NCBI GenBank assembly: GCA_041398985.1
Contig: JAWKTR010000016.1
Span: forward strand, 32,984 to 96,983
Reading direction: 5' to 3'
Source: Pirellulaceae bacterium
Lineage (GTDB): Bacteria; Planctomycetota; Planctomycetia; Pirellulales; Pirellulaceae
DNA length: 64,000 bases
Shown: one piece after another, positions 1 to 8,681 of the stretch
Layout of the letters: each line of letters opens with the position of its first letter
How positions within the stretch are numbered: position 1 is the stretch's first letter
The notes under the pieces: model-generated
The model's input: only the letters and a program-made list of their open reading frames with translations
The model's database searches: none
What the model was told of the DNA's origin: nothing
Translations under genes and position numbers: made by a program

Positions 1-225
1 CTGCCCGGCGGGAGCGTCGACAAATGCTGCATTCGAATTTGCAGCGCTGATCGCCTCGCGAAGGCTGATCATGCCATCAGCCGCATTGGAATCGTCGAGC
101 GTATCGACGATGTAGCTCGTCAGCACAATCCGGCGTTCGAGGCTCTCGCAGACTAGTTGCCGCCTAAAACTCTGGCGGCTTAGACTGAAATGCGGCTTGG
201 GCTTGATGATAGATTTAATAAACAC
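1..225 (-). CDS. 5' part of a planctomycete extracellular/CSLREA-motif surface protein (runs off the window; not in the ORF track)
   Basis: Manual translation from GTG at 225: MFIKSIIKPKPHFSLSRQSFRRQLVCESLERRIVLTSYIVDTLDDSNAADGMISLREAISAANSNAAFVDAPAGQ. It contains the planctomycete ESLERRxVLT leader and a SLREAI motif, and starts 11 nt after the TPR gene stop. Confidence 0.8.
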   Translation of the reverse strand, partial: MFIKSIIKPKPHFSLSRQSFRRQLVCESLERRIVLTSYIVDTLDDSNAADGMISLREAISAANSNAAFVDAPAGQ

Positions 226-236
226 GTTTTATCCCA

Positions 237-1595
237 CTAGTAATTGAGTCGTTGTTGTAGCTCGTTGAAGTCGTTGTAATAGGTGATCGAAAATCGGGGA
301 TTAACCTCAGAAATTCTTAGCGCGTATTCTCTCGCAGTTTGAATATTGCCTACGTGCTCCTCGATCAAGGCAGCATGGAAAAGCAGATTTAGATCGTAGG
401 GCATTGCAGCAAGTGCTTTTTCGGAGGCAATTTTCGCTTCTCTTGCCTGACCGTTCTTGAACAATGCCCAGGCTCGGCAGTCCCAAGCGTAGGTGTCTGC
501 GCGCTGGGTGAAATCGATATCACTGAGTTCGAGGGCTTCGCCTAAATTTCGATCGTGATCTGCATAGAACATGGCAACTTCTCTTGCATGAGCTACCTTG
601 GCGACCTTGGCTTCCTCGCGCATGACGGCCTCAGTTTCTTGCCACAACTGTTGCGCTCGTTCGGCGTTTCCCGCGATGGCAAGTGCATCGCCCAGCAACG
701 CGAGGACTGGCGGCGCATCACTTTCTGCAGCCACTTCGAGCGACTGAATGGCAGCGGGCAGGTTGTTATCAGCGAAATGTGCCATCGCTAATCCGACCAG
801 TGAAGCTTCAGCGTGCGGATTCGCCGATAGAACGGACTGGAATGCGTCCCGAGCCTGATCGGTTTGGCCATTCTTTAAGAGCAGAGTTCCTTTACGCCAG
901 CGATACCATGCCAAACATGCGTCTGTGGCATCGGTGGTATTCCGCAGGTCAACAATCGCTTCGTCCATCAGAGAGATTGCTTGCAGGCACTTGCCTTCGA
1001 GCTCCTCGATGCGTGCAGCTCGTGCAAGTACAGGAGCAGATCGTTCAAGCTTTAATAACCGCTCGAGCAAAGCTTTAGCCGACGCGTAGTCACCCAGTTC
1101 AATTTGGCAATCGACCAACCCTGCCAGGGTCGCTGGTCGCGACGGATACTGCTGATCCATTTCCTCAAGCAACCGTAAAGCTGCTTTGAACTCATGCTGC
1201 GCCATATACGCCGAAGCTAGCGCGAGTTTAGCTGGCAGATATTGCGGGTTAATTGCCAAGGCAGCCTCAAGGCTCTTCTGCGAAAGCGAGTACGACGGCA
1301 GATGGTCGTCGTTTTTCGCACGGCGCAGGAGTAACTCACCTAGCACGGTTCGGCTGGCAAAGTCATCCGGTTGAGCGGCGACCTTGTTTTCGAACAGTTC
1401 AATGGCAGCAACAGTATTTAAGGGTTCGCCGATCGGGACTGAGCCGGCAAGCGGCTCAAGCTCGATCGGATCAACCCAATCGAAATCGTTGAAGCTCACG
1501 GCGTACGGGTCAGCCGCAGGGGCTTGTGCCAGAACGCCTTGAGCAGCAAGCATACTGGCGAACATCAATCGCCATATCAGTTTCGGAGAGTGCAT
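237..1595 (-). CDS. Secreted tetratricopeptide-repeat protein (DUF4331 partner)
   Basis: Signal peptide (MHSPKLIWRLMFASMLAAQGVLA), repeated TPR-like helices, AHAREVAMFYADH segment; directly downstream of DUF4331. Confidence 0.8.
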   Translation of the reverse strand: MHSPKLIWRLMFASMLAAQGVLAQAPAADPYAVSFNDFDWVDPIELEPLAGSVPIGEPLNTVAAIELFENKVAAQPDDFASRTVLGELLLRRAKNDDHLPSYSLSQKSLEAALAINPQYLPAKLALASAYMAQHEFKAALRLLEEMDQQYPSRPATLAGLVDCQIELGDYASAKALLERLLKLERSAPVLARAARIEELEGKCLQAISLMDEAIVDLRNTTDATDACLAWYRWRKGTLLLKNGQTDQARDAFQSVLSANPHAEASLVGLAMAHFADNNLPAAIQSLEVAAESDAPPVLALLGDALAIAGNAERAQQLWQETEAVMREEAKVAKVAHAREVAMFYADHDRNLGEALELSDIDFTQRADTYAWDCRAWALFKNGQAREAKIASEKALAAMPYDLNLLFHAALIEEHVGNIQTAREYALRISEVNPRFSITYYNDFNELQQRLNY

Positions 1596-1653
1596 GTTGG
1601 CGTAATTCGTGAGTTGGGGAGCGGTGCGTTAGGCTGGGCGATTGTGGCTGCGT

Positions 1654-2601
1654 CTAGTGTGCGGCTGCCAAGTAGGGGAACTGGGCGCGGAAGGAAACGT
1701 CGTTCATGTTGACGCCGTCTCCGGTTAGGGCACCGTCGGTGATCAAACTGAGCTCAGCGTCAATCACATCGTCTGCAAGTCGGCGACCATTCAAGAAGCC
1801 ACTGGCATCCGCTGGATCGAAAGTAAGCACGTCGGGCAGTAGAACGCTCGTGAGCGATTCGGCTCGCGCCTGACTATTGCCTAAGCTTACGAGTGAAGCT
1901 TGCATATCGCTGGAGAAATTCGCAATGTCACCGGCGGGTGCAGACATGTTGAAGCTGTTTTTCTTAGCCGATGGAATGAGCACCGTGTTGATGGCGGGCC
2001 TACCCATACGATCGAATTGCCGACCCGCGACCACCGTCCGAGCAGAAATGCTAATCGGTCCTGCCGGAAGACTCGTACGCGGCACTTCGATAACAATCGC
2101 ACTGACGTTTGCGCCTGCAAAGAAATCATTGCCCGTAAATGCGAGCCCGTTGTTAAATCCATTAAGGTCGAAGAAGAATGGGTCGTCAAAGACACCTGCC
2201 GTCACGGAACCGCCGTTGTTTAGTGTCGATGCTGCGCCCGTTTGTCCACTTCCATTTGGGCGTCCATTCATGTCTACAACTACAAACCGCTGAGCCCCCC
2301 GACGTACATTCGAGAAATAAAACCGGTAGCCTCGGTCTGGAACGGCGTCGCCGTTCAAGTCGATCCCTAGTTCGTAGACTGCTCGCGAGTTGAATGACGT
2401 ACCGCTGAGTACGCCAGCCAACGGATTGACAGTCATCACCATTACAAAATTATTCGGATTCGACGGTGATTGAAATGCGTACAAGTCGTTGATATCCACC
2501 GAGTGGTCTGCCTGGACTGATGGGGAATCCAGGTGATCCGCCGCGTTGACAGATGGTGAAAGGACCAGCAACAGTAGTGTTAAACATCCGCACATTCGCA
2601 T
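1654..2601 (-). CDS. DUF4331 domain secreted protein
   Basis: Signal peptide followed by ADHLDSP..DINDLYAF, DDPFFFD, QFDRMGRPAINT and NGRRLADDVID motifs. Confidence 0.85.
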   Translation of the reverse strand: MRMCGCLTLLLLVLSPSVNAADHLDSPSVQADHSVDINDLYAFQSPSNPNNFVMVMTVNPLAGVLSGTSFNSRAVYELGIDLNGDAVPDRGYRFYFSNVRRGAQRFVVVDMNGRPNGSGQTGAASTLNNGGSVTAGVFDDPFFFDLNGFNNGLAFTGNDFFAGANVSAIVIEVPRTSLPAGPISISARTVVAGRQFDRMGRPAINTVLIPSAKKNSFNMSAPAGDIANFSSDMQASLVSLGNSQARAESLTSVLLPDVLTFDPADASGFLNGRRLADDVIDAELSLITDGALTGDGVNMNDVSFRAQFPYLAAAH

Positions 2602-2728
2602 GGTGGGCTCCGCAGAATCAATTAGAAGAAGGGACTGACTGTGAAAAAGGTGGATACAATCATTGCCAGGGTCGCAATTGGATGAAGCGACGTTCCTGAC
2701 CAGTGATGGGTGGCTTACTTACCAGTTG

Positions 2729-2756
2729 TTACGCGGAGCCCGGTCGCCTTGGATGT
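2729..2756 (-). promoter_or_regulatory. Candidate ECF-sigma promoter for the DUF4331 operon
   Basis: Minus strand reads ACATCC-aaggcgaccgggctccg(17 nt)-CGTAA, about 130 nt upstream of the DUF4331 ATG. Confidence 0.65.
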
Positions 2757-2900
2757 GAGGTTCTACTGGAATGCGCGAGTTTTATTAGCGTGATGAAAGA
2801 CACCTGCCCAATGATTGAATGCTCATCAATCAGTCAATGGTTGCGGATCGATCTGGGTGGCTGTCCGACGCGCATAATTGCGACATTTTCATTCAGGAGT

Positions 2901-2928
2901 GCATCCGCGAGGCTTGGTACCGTCGTAC
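2901..2928 (+). promoter_or_regulatory. Candidate ECF-sigma promoter for the DUF4864-sigma-anti-sigma operon
   Basis: GCATCC-gcgaggcttggtaccgt(17 nt)-CGTAC; same motif and spacing as the divergent promoter. Confidence 0.65.
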
Positions 2929-3041
2929 CATGTATAGATTCCAGGATTAGCGTCTTTCTTATCTGCGGCGGTTGCTACTCCTGGAGGGCTTTACCGAATC
3001 AATTCATCGAAGATTGGATTCCCTTGGACACAGCGCACCGC

Positions 3042-3659
3042 ATGCGGTCAAAATCGGGCTTTAATCGAGTTGCAATTTTCACGGTCTGCTTCCTAGTGGG
3101 AATTTGTGGCATGTTGCTCTATCGAGCGATCAAGGTGCCAATTGTGCGTGCCGCTGCTGCGCGGATGTCCCACCTAGAAGAAACGTCCATAGACACTCGG
3201 CCATCAGATCCAGCTTCGGCTTTTGTCGACTCGGATATCGCATCGCCGGAGCTAGAACCGCGCGAGGTTGTGTTACTTCAACTGGAATCTATGCGAGCCA
3301 GTCTCGACGATGTGGAGCAGCTAAAGGCGTGTTTCAGTCTTGCGTCCCCGTCGAACCGCGAGTTGACGGGGCCGTTCGAGCAATTTGCCGAAATGGTTTA
3401 CACCCCACCCTACGATGTCTTATTAGGAAAGGGACAACTGCAAGTGGGGTCGGCGGTGGTTGAAAATGAAGTAGCAGCGGTCCTAGTTACAGCCATAGAC
3501 ACGGCTGGACGTCCAAATGCATTTCGATTCGTGTTGGTCAAGCAGTCGCTGCCACCCTACGAAGACTGTTGGATGACGGAAGCGGTGCAACTTGAGTCGA
3601 TAGTTGCGCCGGTTGGTGCGGATGCAAAGCGGAAGGCTGAGGGTAATGTTGGTCGATGA
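3042..3659 (+). CDS. Membrane-anchored DUF4864-like protein
   Basis: N-terminal TM (VAIFTVCFLVGICGMLLY), then PREVVLLQL..FSLASPSNRELTGPFEQFAEMV..W. Start moved from 2703 to ATG 3042. Confidence 0.65.
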   Translation: MRSKSGFNRVAIFTVCFLVGICGMLLYRAIKVPIVRAAAARMSHLEETSIDTRPSDPASAFVDSDIASPELEPREVVLLQLESMRASLDDVEQLKACFSLASPSNRELTGPFEQFAEMVYTPPYDVLLGKGQLQVGSAVVENEVAAVLVTAIDTAGRPNAFRFVLVKQSLPPYEDCWMTEAVQLESIVAPVGADAKRKAEGNVGR

Positions 3660-4239
3660 CTCAAGCGAATTCGATCAACGAATGCTATTGCGGATCGCAG
3701 CTCGGGACGAAACCGCTTTGATGGAGTTGATCAATTTTTACGGCAGTCGCGTCCAAGGGCTGTGTGAGATGATCGCTGGTGATTTGTTGGACGCCGACAG
3801 TGTTACGTCAGACGTCTTTCTCGAGATTTGGAATCGACCCGAAGCGTATGACCGCTCGCGTGGGTCGCTAAGAACGTACCTGATGACCATCGCTCGCAGT
3901 CGTTCGATCGATCGTCTACGGTCCAATTCCGCTAGGCAGCGGCAGCAAGAAAAATTCTTGGAACTTTCTGCACGAGTGAATTCTACTGAAACTATGGATA
4001 CTCCCGAATCGCGAACGATATTGCTGGAAAAGCGACAGCGGATCCGCGCTGCTGTGGAGCACTTGCCGGCCGATCAACAGCAGGCATTGCAATTGGCTTT
4101 TTTTTCCGGTTTGACACACCGGGAAGTTGCGGAACGATTAAAGTTGCCCTTGGGAACTGTGAAGACGTATATACGCAAAGGTCTGTTGCACTTGCGTGAG
4201 GCTCTCGTTACGCAACTCGAAACAGGAGACCTTTCATGA
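3646..4239 (+). CDS. ECF RNA polymerase sigma factor (SigK-like)
   Basis: Region 2 (DVFLEIWNRPEAYDRSRGSLRTYLMTIARSRSID) and region 4 (LTHREVAERLKLPLGTVKTYIRKGL). Confidence 0.92.
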   Translation: MLVDDSSEFDQRMLLRIAARDETALMELINFYGSRVQGLCEMIAGDLLDADSVTSDVFLEIWNRPEAYDRSRGSLRTYLMTIARSRSIDRLRSNSARQRQQEKFLELSARVNSTETMDTPESRTILLEKRQRIRAAVEHLPADQQQALQLAFFSGLTHREVAERLKLPLGTVKTYIRKGLLHLREALVTQLETGDLS

Positions 4240-5033
4240 AGTGCGCTGAAGTACAGGATATCCTGGTCGAGTTTGTGTTGGATGAACTCGACGCTACTGA
4301 ACGCCAGGAGGTGCAGCAGCACTTAGCGTCGAATTGCGAATGCTGCCAACAACACTTGGCCGAATTAGTGGAAGGGGTGGGGCTGCTTTTTGAGATTGCT
4401 CCGACAGCGGAGTTACGTGCAGACCGTGCGGCAGCCATACTTTCTCGAGCTAGAGCTTCGCAGGCAGCCGCACCTTTAGGACGCGATTGGCTGACCCTTC
4501 CGGCCAGCTTGTTGGCCTTAGCCGCCGGGTTGTTCATTGCCGCGACGATTTGGCCTGCTACCCCGATTGGTGGTGGCGGTTCAACCTCGGTCCGGCAAGA
4601 ATCCGCGAAACGGGCCAATGAGGTTGGCGAGGGTACGCCGAGCAGCGAGCACCGTTTGGGAGATTTTCAAGATCTAGCGAGGCGCTTGCACCTCCCCAGC
4701 CAGACGAGCTATCAAACCACTTTTGTGGCATCACGCGCCATGCCGGGATCGACCGGCTTGCAGGGACTGGTCATTTGCGATCTGCTTGCCCGCGAGCTCC
4801 ATTTTTTTGGACGATCGTTTCCACCTGCTCCAGCAGGCCGCGACTATGTCCTATGGATTGGCGGAATATCGGTTCCGGCTCAACCTCTGGCAACATTGAC
4901 TGTCGGTGTCGATGGCAATTGTCGTTCCGTCGTTCCACTGCCGGACGGCGATTTCGAAGGCGTGTTTGTGACGCTCGAGCCAAGCGGAGATCCGCCTTCC
5001 AAGCCTTCGGGCGATGCGCAGCTAACTTTCTAG
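4236..5033 (+). CDS. Anti-sigma factor, RskA-like, with N-terminal zinc-binding motif
   Basis: ATGA overlap with the sigma gene; HLASNCECC (ZAS-like), a single TM, and C-terminal FPPAPAGRDYVLW..FVTLEPSG resembling RskA. Confidence 0.85.
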   Translation: MKCAEVQDILVEFVLDELDATERQEVQQHLASNCECCQQHLAELVEGVGLLFEIAPTAELRADRAAAILSRARASQAAAPLGRDWLTLPASLLALAAGLFIAATIWPATPIGGGGSTSVRQESAKRANEVGEGTPSSEHRLGDFQDLARRLHLPSQTSYQTTFVASRAMPGSTGLQGLVICDLLARELHFFGRSFPPAPAGRDYVLWIGGISVPAQPLATLTVGVDGNCRSVVPLPDGDFEGVFVTLEPSGDPPSKPSGDAQLTF

Positions 5034-5145
5034 ACGCGATCACCGCTCAGCGGGTAAATCATCGTAGCATCCGTTGAAACCATTGTGCGGCACCGTGACT
5101 CAGCTGTTCACCGGTGCCGACCGCCTGGTGATCAATTGGCAGTTT

Positions 5146-5252
5146 TGGGCATGGTCGTCTTTCGCTCCACGAAAGGGTGTATTGGGCATGGTCGTCTTTC
5201 GCTCCGCGAAAGGGTGTATATGGTGGACTTTCGCGGAGGAGCGAAAGGCGAC
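5146..5252. repeat. REP-like cluster (CTTTCGCTCCGCGAAAG family)
   Basis: Two tandem 37-bp units TGGGCATGGTCGTCTTTCGCTCCRCGAAAGGGTGTAT plus an inverted copy CTTTCGCGGAGGAGCGAAAGGCGAC. Confidence 0.8.
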
Positions 5253-5340
5253 ACTTATTTTCCGCTCCATCCTTGGTTATGATGGGAATAGCGGCTGAGG
5301 CCGTTCCCGCCTAACTATCCTGCCCTCCTGAGAACTTGCC

Positions 5341-8300
5341 ATGATTCCTTCGGCTGAGGTTCGGTCGTATTCATTCTTGATCCAGGTGCGAAGACATTGC
5401 ATTCGCACAGTTGTAGCTTTCCCACTGACGGCTTCTGGGCTGACGGCCATTCTATCTGCGTTTGCCTTTACGTCGGTTTTGTGGGCTGATCAGCCGCTGG
5501 AATACAACCGCGATATTCGTCCCATTTTGTCTGATCATTGTTTTGCCTGTCATGGCGCTGACAGCGCGGCACGCGAAGCCGATTTGCGGCTTGATGTGCG
5601 CGACGCGGCGATCGCAGGTGGGGTGTTAGAACCTGGCGATGCGGAAGCAAGCGCTCTGGTGGCTCGCATCACCAGTTCGGACAGCGATCTGCGGATGCCA
5701 CCACCGGAAACCAAGAAAACGCTGACGGCTGAGCAAATTGACCTGCTCCGTCGCTGGGTCGACGCGGGCGCAATATATCAGCCGCATTGGTCGTTTATCG
5801 CGCCCCAACCAGCGCAGCCCCCGCAAGTAGAGGATGACGCGTGGGTCAAGAACGATATTGATCGCTTCGTCTTGCATCGCCTGGAAGCCAGTGGGCTAGC
5901 TCCCGCGCCGGAGGCTGATGCGCGGAACCTCTTTCGCCGCCTGCACTTGGACATTACGGGCTTGCCACCCGCCCCCAGCGATGTTGATCGATTTGAGCGA
6001 GAATTTGCTCAAGGGGGCGACAGTGTCCTGTCTCAATGGATTGACCAACTGATGAACTCCCCGGCTTGGGGTGAACACCGCGCACGATATTGGCTAGATG
6101 CAGCGCGTTACGGAGATACGCATGGCTTGCACTTCGACAACTACCGTGAGATGTGGCCGTACCGCGACTGGGTCATTCGCGCGTTCAACAATAACCAGCG
6201 ATTCGATCAATTTACCGTTGAGCAATTGGCGGGTGATTTGCTTGACGATCCTTCGGAGGATCAGTTGATCGCCACCGGCTTTCAACGATGCAATATCACA
6301 ACCAACGAAGGCGGGACCATCGACGAAGAGAATTTAGCGTTGTATGCGACAGATCGCGTGCAGACTTTTGGCTGGGTCTTTTAGGTTTGACGACCAATTG
6401 TGCTCAATGCCACGACCATAAATTTGATCCGATCAGCATGCGAGACTACTATTCGCTGGCAGCTTACTTTCGCAATACGACACAGCCCGCCAAAGATGGC
6501 AATGTCAAGGACGGTCGTAGCTCTGTAATTCGCATACCGTCTAGGGAGGACCGACCGCGGTGGGAGGCGTTGCCTGGCGAAATCGCGGCTGCTAAGGCAC
6601 GTCGCGATGAACGTCGTCGTGAGGTTCAGCCAGAGTTTGAAGGTTGGCTCGCGGAAACTTCGCCTGAATCTCTAGAAGCCCAGATACCACAAGTCGGTTT
6701 GCTCGCACACTTGCCTTTGAACGAAGGCGTTGGAAATACGGTGAAGAGTTTTGCATTTGCAGAGTTGACGGCAAACGCCGGCGAATTGTCGAGCCAGACA
6801 GACGCGAACCAGGCAACGCCCGCTGCGGCCAACATCGACCACGTTGGGCCTGCGGTAAAGGCTACCGGCGAGCTTACCTGGGTGCCCGATGGGCAGCTTG
6901 GGCCGGCGCCGGTCATGGCACTCGGACGTAGCCTCGAACTCGGCGGCCTTGGGAACTTCCAATGGGACGAGAGTTTCAGTGTTGGTGCTTGGATTCGATC
7001 ACCCAACAAGAATATCAATGGCGGAATTATCGCAAGGATGGACGAGAAGGACGCTTACCGTGGTTGGGATTTGTACCAAGGCGGCGGCAAGATCGCTGTA
7101 CATATTATCCAATCGTGGTCGGACAACGCGCTGAAAGTCGCTACCAAACGTGACGTGATCACGCCGAACCAATGGCAGCATGTGTTGGCGACCTATGATG
7201 GCTCAGGCAAGCCAGAGGGAATCAAGATTTATCTGAACGGCCAGCCAGAAGAACTGCAGACGGAAGCAAACACGCTCAAATCCGACGCGAATGTTCGCAC
7301 TGCCACACCGCTCCGAATCGGACAACGCAGCGACACGCAAGCCTTTGACGGTGGAGCAATCCAAGATATGCGACTGTATGGGCGAGCGTTAAGCGCTGAA
7401 GAAGTTAGCGCAATTGCGGGCATCGGACCACTGCAGGCTCTCTTGACCACCCCGGCTGCCGAACGAACGGCAGAGCAGCAAGCGACTTTGCTGGAATTCT
7501 ATTTGACGAACTACGACGCGCAATTTCCCACGCTCGTCAAAGCACTTGCAGATTTAGAAGCTGAACGCAACGCGATTGAACAGCGCAGCCCGGTCACGCA
7601 TATTCAACAAGAGAAAATGGACTCGGCCCCGATGGCAAATATCCTGATGCGTGGTGAATACGATCAAGTAGGAGCGGAGGTACCTGCGGCGCCGCCAGCA
7701 GCCTTGCATGCCCTGCCCAGCGATGCCCCAAACAATCGTCTAGGGCTGGCGCAGTGGGTCGTGGACCCCGCCAATCCGTTAACTTCACGCGTGGTTGTGA
7801 ATCGCTTCTGGCAGCAGTTGTTTGGTCGTGGTCTGGTGGCCACTACCGAAGATTTTGGCACGACGGGCACGTTGCCTAGCCACCCAGAATTGCTCGATTG
7901 GTTAGCGATCGATTTTCGTGAGGGCGGTTGGGACGTTAAGCGGTTTTTCAAACAGATGTTGATGAGTGCGACGTATCGTCAAGCCGCGGTGACAACGCCC
8001 GAAAAGTTTGAGTTGGATCGCGATAACGTGCTGCTCTCGCGTGGTCCACGTTTTCGCATGGATGCCGAAATGGTGCGCGACTACGCCTTGTCGGCCAGCG
8101 GCCTGCTGTCGAGCAAGATGTTTGGGCCGGGCGTCAAGCCGTATCAGCCTGATAAGATCTGGGACATGGTCGGACTGCCTGGTGGTGATACCCGCGACTA
8201 CAAGCCAGATTCAGGCGAAGATCTATATCGTCGCACTGTGTATACGTTTTGGAAACGCATGGCGCCGCCGCCAAACTTGGAGGCCTTTAATGCGCCCAGC

Positions 8301-8681
8301 CGAGAAGTCTGCACCGTGCGTCGTGAGAGAACCAACACGCCGCTTCAAGCCCTGGTTACCCTCAACGATCCACAATTCGTCGAAGCCGCCCGGAGCTTGG
8401 CCGAAGTGTCAGTGACTGCAGCCTTGCAAGATGATTCCAGCATTGTTGATACGATTGCTCTGCGCGTCCTGGGTCGCAAGTTTTCCGAACGCGAACGACA
8501 AATTGTGATGGCTAGTCAGCAAGAAATAATGGCTTATTACCAAGCCCATCCCGAGGATGCCCAAGCCCTGCTGGACGTCGGCGATTCGAAACCTCAAGCC
8601 AACTTGCCATCTGCGACTTTGGCCACCTGGACGATGATCTGCAACCAGATCATGAATTTAGATGAGACCTTGAATAAATAA
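5341..8681 (+). CDS. Planctomycete cytochrome c / DUF1549 / LamG / DUF1553 protein (one frameshift near 6378; start uncertain)
   Basis: ORFs 5341-6384 and 6288-8681 join as ..TFGWVF|LGLTTNCAQCHDHKF if one T is added to the T-run. Two CxxCH motifs (CFACH, CAQCH), a LamG-like insert (WQHVLATYDGS), and PSHPELLDWLA / TNTPLQAL. Confidence 0.88.

Follow-up and report, generated by a model that had tools for sequence, protein, structure and literature searches.

Among the extracytoplasmic function (ECF) sigma factors, the groups ECF214, ECF18 and ECF19 form a clade with common RskA-like anti-sigmas (PMC7826278), and autoregulation is a feature of most ECF sigmas (PMC3817407). The ECF Hub consensus for ECF18, as quoted in a 2026 Cupriavidus paper (PMC13492112, Table 4), combines a -35 element GCATCC with a -10 element CGTAT, while a conserved cysteine pair is present in 94% of ECF18 and 56% of ECF19 members (PMC7509140). 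Here, we describe a locus of this kind from a Pirellulaceae bacterium of the Planctomycetota, located in a 64,000-nucleotide stretch (hereafter, the window) of assembly GCA_041398985.1, contig JAWKTR010000016.1, positions 32,984 to 96,983. The first 5033 nucleotides of the window hold two divergent operons, one encoding a DUF4864-like protein, an ECF sigma factor and a membrane-spanning anti-sigma, and the other encoding a DUF4331 protein, a TPR protein and a CSLREA-like surface protein. Judged from comparative sequence analysis, the two operons very probably form an autoregulated mini-regulon with twin divergent promoters, built around a sigma/anti-sigma module of the SigK/RskA type that resembles the ECF18/ECF19 clade.

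The divergent start codons at 2601 (minus strand) and 3042 (plus strand) enclose a 440-bp intergenic region. On the plus strand, the sigma operon opens with the DUF4864-like gene (3042–3659, from an ATG; an open reading frame (ORF) beginning with a GTG at 2703 was set aside as an artefact of ORF calling), followed by the SigK-like ECF sigma gene, which ends at 4239 and whose first possible start is a TTG at 3604, the ATG at 3646 being likelier. The anti-sigma gene (4236–5033), with RskA_C and zf-HC2 domains, overlaps the sigma stop with its start codon (ATGA). On the minus strand, the cargo operon begins with the gene for the exported DUF4331 protein (1654–2601; PF14224, 153.1 bits, cut-off 27), continues with that for an exported TPR protein (237–1595; TPR_19 at 1.1e-23, together with many other TPR Pfam families) that has a signal-peptide-like N-terminus, and reaches the 5' part of the CSLREA-like gene (1–225), which starts with a GTG 11 nt past the TPR stop and runs on to the left of the window. 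ORFs and domain hits thus agree with the gene content that a preceding sequence-only reading had given for both operons. Its labels for DUF4331, sigma and anti-sigma also stand, whereas those for DUF4864 (PF16156, 21.3 bits against 27.1) and CSLREA (TIGR04214 CSLREA_Nterm, 16.9 bits against 25) fall below the curated cut-offs.

The intergenic region contains one copy of the motif CATCC-N17-CGTA on each strand, and each copy is aimed at an operon, exactly as the sequence-only reading had it. For the DUF4864-sigma-anti-sigma operon, the predicted ECF promoter, which would be autoregulatory, lies at 2902–2927 on the plus strand (-35 CATCC at 2902–2906, -10 CGTA at 2924–2927), and that of the DUF4331-TPR-CSLREA operon, likewise an ECF-type promoter by prediction, at 2730–2755 on the minus strand (-35 CATCC at 2755–2751, -10 CGTA at 2733–2730). 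The two -35 elements are 146 bp apart. From the end of the -10 element to the start codon, the distance is 114 nt for the ATG at 3042 and 128 nt for that at 2601, in line with the 110–130 nt first given. With their flanks, the sites read tgCATCC...CGTAc (plus, 2900–2928) and caCATCC...CGTAa (minus), and the transcription start sites predicted from the motif fall at about 2934 (plus) and 2723 (minus). A competing strong sigma-70-like promoter was not found in the intergenic region, where the sole match is weak (9/12) and, at 3025–3054, overlaps the 3042 start. The motif corresponds to the ECF18 promoter consensus GCATCC/CGTAT (PMC13492112) and the sigma/anti-sigma pair is SigK/RskA-like, which bears out the earlier assignment of CATCC/CGTA to a SigK-like ECF promoter type.

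Both matches to CATCC-N17-CGTA in the window, exactly two in 64 kb, are those in the intergenic region; the expectation for the window is 0.37 matches, and two were reached in 5 of 100 shuffles. Across the 7.49-Mb genome, the pattern occurs 35 times on both strands together, against 31 for a reversed control pattern, so that there is no genome-wide enrichment of the motif as such. With a rate of about 2.3e-6 per oriented position in the genome, one copy per strand in a given 440-bp region has a probability of about 1e-6, which sustains the original contention that the pair is unlikely by chance. A genome scan with a position weight matrix returned 7 sites scoring 18 bits or more, against none in the reversed control, with the DUF4331 promoter, at 22.4 bits, ranking second in the genome. 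Apart from this promoter, the sites at or above 18 bits lie mostly inside ORFs, and the best of them is more than 430 nt from an ORF; they were not counted as members of the regulon. That best site, also the strongest matrix match in the genome (25 bits, ccgCATCC-N17-CGTAtg), is intergenic and lies on another contig (C17:139263–139292, plus), with over 430 nt separating it from a downstream HMGL-like gene of the citramalate/isopropylmalate synthase type. The leader that follows it gave no Rfam match, and the site could be a further target, the promoter of a small RNA, or a chance occurrence. With only seven such sites in the genome, the DUF4331 promoter among them and the C17 site as a candidate, the term "self-contained" used in the sequence-only reading is reasonable, and a small, mostly local regulon is a fair description.

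Conservation among relatives provides strong support for the promoter assignment. By the source names of its homologues, the bacterium belongs in or near Aureliella (Pirellulaceae). Sixty relatives were searched for the DUF4864-sigma-anti-sigma triad, which was recovered in 16 loci and is adjoined by DUF4331-TPR in four of them. We then enumerated all 5-mer/N14–20/4-mer dyads in 21 orthologous upstream regions, excluding the window itself, and in this unbiased search CATCC-N17-CGTA ranked first, being present in seven regions against a maximum of three in 30 shuffles. The orthologous sites share conserved flanks, g[C/A]ATCC[g/a] and CGTA[a/t], and an A/T-rich upstream stretch, with an unconserved spacer; conserved flanks around a free spacer are the footprint of a -35/-10 promoter. 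Upstream of DUF4331, the motif is found on the coding strand, 90–230 nt before the start, in 10 of 10 clade orthologues, three further metagenomic loci included. In four of these cases (L053, L056, L121 and L123), the fetched locus lacks a sigma gene; the genomes of L053 and L056 carry the triad on a different contig. DUF4331 is present in seven genomes of the genus, and all seven also have a close triad.

Twin divergent sites like those of the window recur in L032, L038, L039 and L122, and sites upstream of the sigma operon were recovered in L032, L033, L034, L036, L037, L038, L040, L041, L043 and L122. A different arrangement is seen in L035, where five genes are collinear behind one site and the divergent CSLREA gene has a CATCC-N16-CGTA of its own; with this site, the motif is linked, in one locus or another, to all three cargo genes. 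The scan of relatives that the sequence-only reading had proposed as a check therefore came out in its favor, the motif being conserved before both the sigma and the DUF4331 operons, even where no sigma gene is nearby. Two further observations were made in these relatives. Besides its twin intergenic sites, L122 has an 18.9-bit CATCC-N16-CGTA at 6253 (minus), antisense inside the DUF4331 coding region, which may be a chance match or an internal antisense promoter. L034 has a pair of SigK-like sigma genes, separated by about 1.3 kb (4992–5630 and 6879–7514, minus) and 44% and 48% identical to the window sigma, which suggests a local duplication of the module.

Beyond the genus, an order-wide search recovered the triad in 33 of 401 genomes, spanning 14 genera; a phylum-wide search of 400 genomes found it only in the genome of the window. 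For an independent test, we used 28 newly fetched triad loci from other genera, none of which had contributed to the weight matrix, and searched the stretch from -700 to the sigma start for sites scoring 14 bits or more. Fifteen loci had such a site, where 1.6 were expected (P=2e-10), and the DUF4864-like gene and the sigma gene were present in all 28. Many of these sites face away from the triad and towards a divergent gene, whose product is a DUF4394 protein with PEP-CTERM, a CHRD protein, or a DUF4331 protein with PEP-CTERM. In Crateriforma conspicua, a 23.8-bit site is positioned between the anti-sigma gene and a gene for a 1472-aa CHRD/dockerin protein. A fixed triad with varying exported genes behind the sites marks the unit as a cassette with exchangeable cargo: as predicted from these gene neighborhoods, the DUF4864-sigma-RskA triad is the constant part, and the cargo in related planctomycetes is DUF4331-TPR, DUF4394 with PEP-CTERM, or CHRD.

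The proteins of the triad agree with the promoter type. ECF (group 4) members of the sigma-70 family comprise only the sigma2 and sigma4 regions in about 200 aa, and the window sigma has this composition (Sigma70_r2, 48.9 bits; Sigma70_r4_2, 55.3 bits; TIGR02937, 93.9 bits, cut-off 42.9). Its best NCBIfam models both score below their cut-offs (PRK12519, 150 bits against 222; SigK PRK09646, 136.4 bits against 226), and its best relative in the PDB is Mycobacterium tuberculosis SigK (4nqw_A, E 7.5e-24). Two hallmarks of the SigK/RskA clade are in place, namely an RskA-like anti-sigma directly downstream of the sigma gene and the promoter motif of the group upstream of the sigma operon. The cysteine pair is lacking: the window sigma has a single cysteine (C54), and the SigK cysteines are unmatched in the alignment with 4nqw_A. 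The anti-sigma matches PF10099 RskA_C (30.9 bits, cut-off 29.4), zf-HC2 (24.9 bits, cut-off 22.2) and NF052375 (1.6e-14), and is composed of an N-terminal anti-sigma domain, one transmembrane segment (about residues 87–107) and a predicted extracytoplasmic RskA_C domain.

From these features, the following course of events can be proposed. At rest, the single-pass anti-sigma would hold the sigma factor at the membrane by its N-terminal anti-sigma domain, as expected from the family. A cue, most likely sensed outside the cytoplasm by RskA_C and possibly with the participation of the DUF4864-like protein, would then, as in other RskA-type systems, inactivate the anti-sigma by proteolysis or by a change of conformation. 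The freed sigma factor would take RNA polymerase to the two back-to-back GCATCC-N17-CGTA promoters, of which the one on the plus strand (2902–2927) would exert positive autoregulation of the DUF4864-sigma-anti-sigma operon, and the one on the minus strand (2755–2730) would drive DUF4331, its TPR partner and the CSLREA/beta-helix surface protein. The sequence-only reading had likewise proposed that the sigma factor co-induces its own operon and three exported proteins. This part is upheld by the conservation of the motif upstream of both operons, whereas the mode of release that it envisaged, a redox signal acting through the Cys/His zinc site of the anti-sigma, is not.

Such a trigger, in which cytoplasmic redox or thiol stress acts on the zinc-binding Cys/His site in the manner of a zinc-binding anti-sigma (ZAS) switch, has some features in its favor, as the anti-sigma matches zf-HC2, most orthologues share its residues C3, H29, C34 and C37, and the SigK-RskA pair of M. 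tuberculosis is redox-sensitive (PMC7826278, PMC8103513). We nevertheless consider it unlikely. The motif of the window protein, C3...H29-x4-C34-x2-C37, departs from the canonical H-x3-C-x2-C with an upstream Cys/His ligand, and the zf-HC2 alignment stops before the cysteine pair; canonical ZAS spacing occurs in the orthologue of L044. In the orthologue of L038, the histidine and all cysteines of the motif are lost, yet the twin promoters and DUF4331 are kept. The redox sensing of SigK itself resides in two sigma cysteines, and sensing of this type was rejected here because those cysteines are absent from the window sigma. Zinc motifs occur in about half of the membrane-bound anti-sigmas and are regarded as largely structural there, and M. 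tuberculosis RskA is not zinc-reliant (PMC7406223). Since the anti-sigma crosses the membrane once and has its RskA_C domain outside the cytoplasm, an extracytoplasmic cue sensed via this domain, with or without the DUF4864-like protein, is the more likely trigger.

Among 15 orthologues of the DUF4864-like protein, PF16156 matches 11 (best, 3.9e-9), and the AlphaFold2 (AF2) model of the window protein (pLDDT 84) shows a helix at residues 9–43, the N-terminal transmembrane segment, followed by an alpha+beta NTF2-like cone. The top Foldseek matches of the model, with probabilities of about 1.0, are MlaC/Ttg2D lipid-binding proteins and SnoaL/KSI-like proteins; as the best fold matches (target TM 0.4–0.6), MlaC/Ttg2D and SnoaL/NTF2-like proteins share a fold that typically forms a hydrophobic ligand pocket. 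Unlike these proteins, to which identity is only 10–16% and the TM scores are modest, the DUF4864-like protein has a transmembrane helix as its tether and belongs to a sigma operon. The charge distribution seen in most orthologues points to an extracytoplasmic location of the domain. C97 and C176, two cysteines nearly invariant among the 15 orthologues, would be compatible with an extracytoplasmic disulphide. The gene stands directly upstream of sigma in 16 of 16 and 28 of 28 triad loci and in Crateriforma, and this constant position suggests that its product serves as an accessory sensor or modulator acting on RskA_C.

Turning to the cargo, we assembled a set of 80 DUF4331 loci that spans at least five phyla, including Planctomycetota, Chloroflexota, Actinomycetota and Acidobacteriota. 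A TPR gene directly follows DUF4331 in 57 of them, across several phyla, and a homologue of the window sigma was found within 3.5 kb in 19 of 29 loci from Chloroflexota, 4 of 26 from Planctomycetota and 3 of 18 from Actinomycetota. The related motif [ACG]AT[CG]C-N16–17-CG[TA]A occurs within 300 nt upstream in 44 of the 80 loci, against a background of 3.2% (P=5e-44), with 15/18 in Actinomycetota, 20/29 in Chloroflexota and only 5/26 in Planctomycetota. DUF4331-TPR thereby appears to be a recurrent ECF target in several phyla, to the extent that gene neighborhoods and upstream motifs can indicate it. None of the literature searched yielded a paper naming DUF4331, DUF4864 or DUF4394.

Lineage-specific variants of the motif were observed about 80–250 nt upstream of DUF4331: aAATGCaaa-N16-tgCGTAt in Anaerolineae (Chloroflexota loci L142, L153, L156, L161, L162, L187 and L188) and AATCC-N16-CGAA in Acidimicrobiia (L132, L141, L146, L170, L173 and L178). 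In the motif-bearing Chloroflexota loci, the sigma gene, a presumed anti-sigma gene, DUF4331 and TPR are often collinear. DUF4331-TPR pairs also repeatedly have as neighbors, even where no sigma gene is nearby, genes for giant surface proteins that contain Dockerin_1, GEVED or beta-helix domains (Stieleria varia L059/L060, L121 and L123); this hints that the pair is functionally connected with large proteins of the cell surface.

Several observations weigh against a single autoregulated regulon as outlined above. The promoter of the sigma operon scores only 16.7 bits and is devoid of the A/T-rich flank found at most orthologous sites, and 13 of the 28 independent triad loci have no site at the threshold used. 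The CSLREA-like gene, the last of the cargo operon, is frame-broken in the assembly, with at least seven frame changes in its repeats. The DUF4331 genes of Stieleria varia and Fuerstiella marisgermanici, like most other planctomycete loci, have neither the motif nor a nearby sigma gene, which implies that the wiring is lineage-specific within the phylum; a wider formulation, with all planctomycete DUF4331 genes under this sigma, was rejected on the Stieleria and Fuerstiella loci. Finally, the genome holds about 60 ECF-like candidates and several ECF groups have a similar -10 CGTA, so that cross-recognition is possible.

This last point leads to the alternative that the motifs are real ECF-type promoters read mainly by another ECF sigma of the genome, for which the weight-matrix scan, with more high-scoring sites than its control, and possible cross-talk among ECF11-, ECF18-, ECF26- and ECF37-type motifs with CGT-rich -10 elements (PMC13492112) could also be adduced. 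The window sigma, however, is the sole SigK-like homologue in its genome (at E<=1e-20), the motif accompanies the triad in different genera and families and coincides with the consensus of the RskA-linked ECF18 group, and DUF4331 occurs in the genus only in genomes with a close triad; we therefore regard control by another sigma as very unlikely. That the pair is a coincidence, or a set of half-sites for a DNA-binding regulator, is extremely improbable: although the motif was chosen after seeing the sequence, 5 of 100 window shuffles give two matches and the genome count does not exceed its control, both copies lie correctly oriented in one 440-bp region, the motif was recovered de novo with the window excluded, and the fixed 16–17-nt spacing, free spacer and constant placement on the coding strand before DUF4331 are the signature of a -35/-10 promoter rather than a dimeric operator. 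We accordingly retain the autoregulated SigK/RskA-like mini-regulon as the reading that best accounts for the locus.

The frame breaks of the CSLREA-like gene bear on the quality of the assembly. In the contig of the same genome, the gene continues (C16:26036–33211, L062) through about five 930-bp tandem repeats that are 90–95% identical. By eye, the leader ESLERRxVL of planctomycetes, an ISLREAI motif and beta-helix GGAI repeats can be recognized in its product, and the terminal ORF has a PEP-CTERM-like tail. Intact orthologues of 1088–1130 aa with Dockerin_1 follow the TPR gene in L121 and L123, and L035 has a divergent orthologue of 1118 aa, also with Dockerin_1. Elsewhere in the window (5341–8681, plus), a PSCyt1-PSCyt2...LamG-PSD1 protein is split into two overlapping frames near 6288–6384, with its PSCyt2 domain divided between the ORFs (HMM positions 2–174 and 153–208), an apparent frameshift. 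Together, the two cases make assembly indel errors plausible, and the CSLREA-like frame breaks may be due either to such errors in the repeats or to decay of the gene.

The DUF4331 protein itself offers a biochemical lead. Its AF2 model (pLDDT 85, pTM 0.85) combines a beta-sandwich with a helical part, and the PDB gave no match to it by fold (TM about 0.1, antibody hits only) or by sequence. Of 110 close homologues, 107 show the signal-peptidase context AXA|ADH, and the corresponding context is present in all 75 of the motif-bearing loci across at least five phyla (72 ADH, 3 SDH). An invariant His23 stands three residues past the AXA site, giving a predicted mature N-terminus of Ala-Asp-His. 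NH2-X-X-His, the amino-terminal Cu(II)- and Ni(II)-binding (ATCUN) motif, is an established binding pattern for these two ions. The predicted end of DUF4331 has this same pattern, both cleavage and binding being predictions only, and it suggests an extracytoplasmic role in Cu(II)/Ni(II) binding. Similar logic has led to the N-terminal-histidine "signal-strapping" metalloproteins (PMC12537917), which are likewise exported metal binders; these differ in having the histidine at position 1 rather than position 3, and the window locus has no metal permease. A wider proposal would be that DUF4331-TPR is a conserved Cu(II)/Ni(II)-handling module and a core target of SigK/RskA-like ECF sigmas across Planctomycetota, Chloroflexota, Actinomycetota and Acidobacteriota, and that the planctomycete switch has gained DUF4864 as an obligatory third component, sensing a hydrophobic or metal-linked envelope cue together with RskA_C; we put this forward as a tentative idea with the odds against it.

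The type of switch is in itself ordinary, as ECF sigma/anti-sigma pairs that regulate themselves and act on a local target are textbook; the locus is informative for the unknown cargo families and the conserved DUF4864 partner. It provides a testable assignment of sigma, promoter and target in Planctomycetota, an ECF-rich phylum almost without mapped regulons, and links DUF4331-TPR, an uncharacterized pair found in multiple phyla, to one type of envelope-signalling sigma. The Ala-Asp-His end gives a concrete biochemical hypothesis, metal binding, for DUF4331, and the cassette logic, with DUF4331, DUF4394 and CHRD as exchangeable cargo, could make several domains of unknown function approachable through one regulator.

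Among described systems, the mpt83-sigK-rskA locus of M. tuberculosis (ECF19; Veyrier et al. 2008, as described in PMC7509140; 4NQW) is one of the closest. There, too, the sigma gene is followed by that of a membrane anti-sigma with RskA_C, the regulon is small, largely local and autoregulated, and an adjoining secreted or surface protein of unknown function has its own site for the sigma. It differs in its cargo, a fasciclin protein in place of DUF4331-TPR-CSLREA, and in the absence of an additional first gene such as the DUF4864-like one. M. tuberculosis SigK has the two cysteines absent from the window sigma, which scores below the NCBIfam SigK cut-off, and RskA does not rely on a Cys/His motif (PMC7406223), whereas the window anti-sigma has one. 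The ECF18 group, exemplified by RpoP of Cupriavidus metallidurans (ECF Hub; Casas-Pastor et al. 2021), shares the identical promoter consensus and an RskA-like anti-sigma with the window; it differs in the cysteine pair carried by nearly all its members (PMC7509140) and absent from the window sigma, as well as in phylum and in conserved neighbors. For the three-component layout, the closest likeness is to CnrY-CnrX-CnrH of C. metallidurans (PMC7826278), in which one operon likewise encodes the sigma factor, its membrane-bound anti-sigma and a third component, anchored in the membrane and with an extracytoplasmic domain, and the output is an adjacent envelope system. CnrX, however, is a helical metal sensor without kinship in sequence or fold to the NTF2-like DUF4864.

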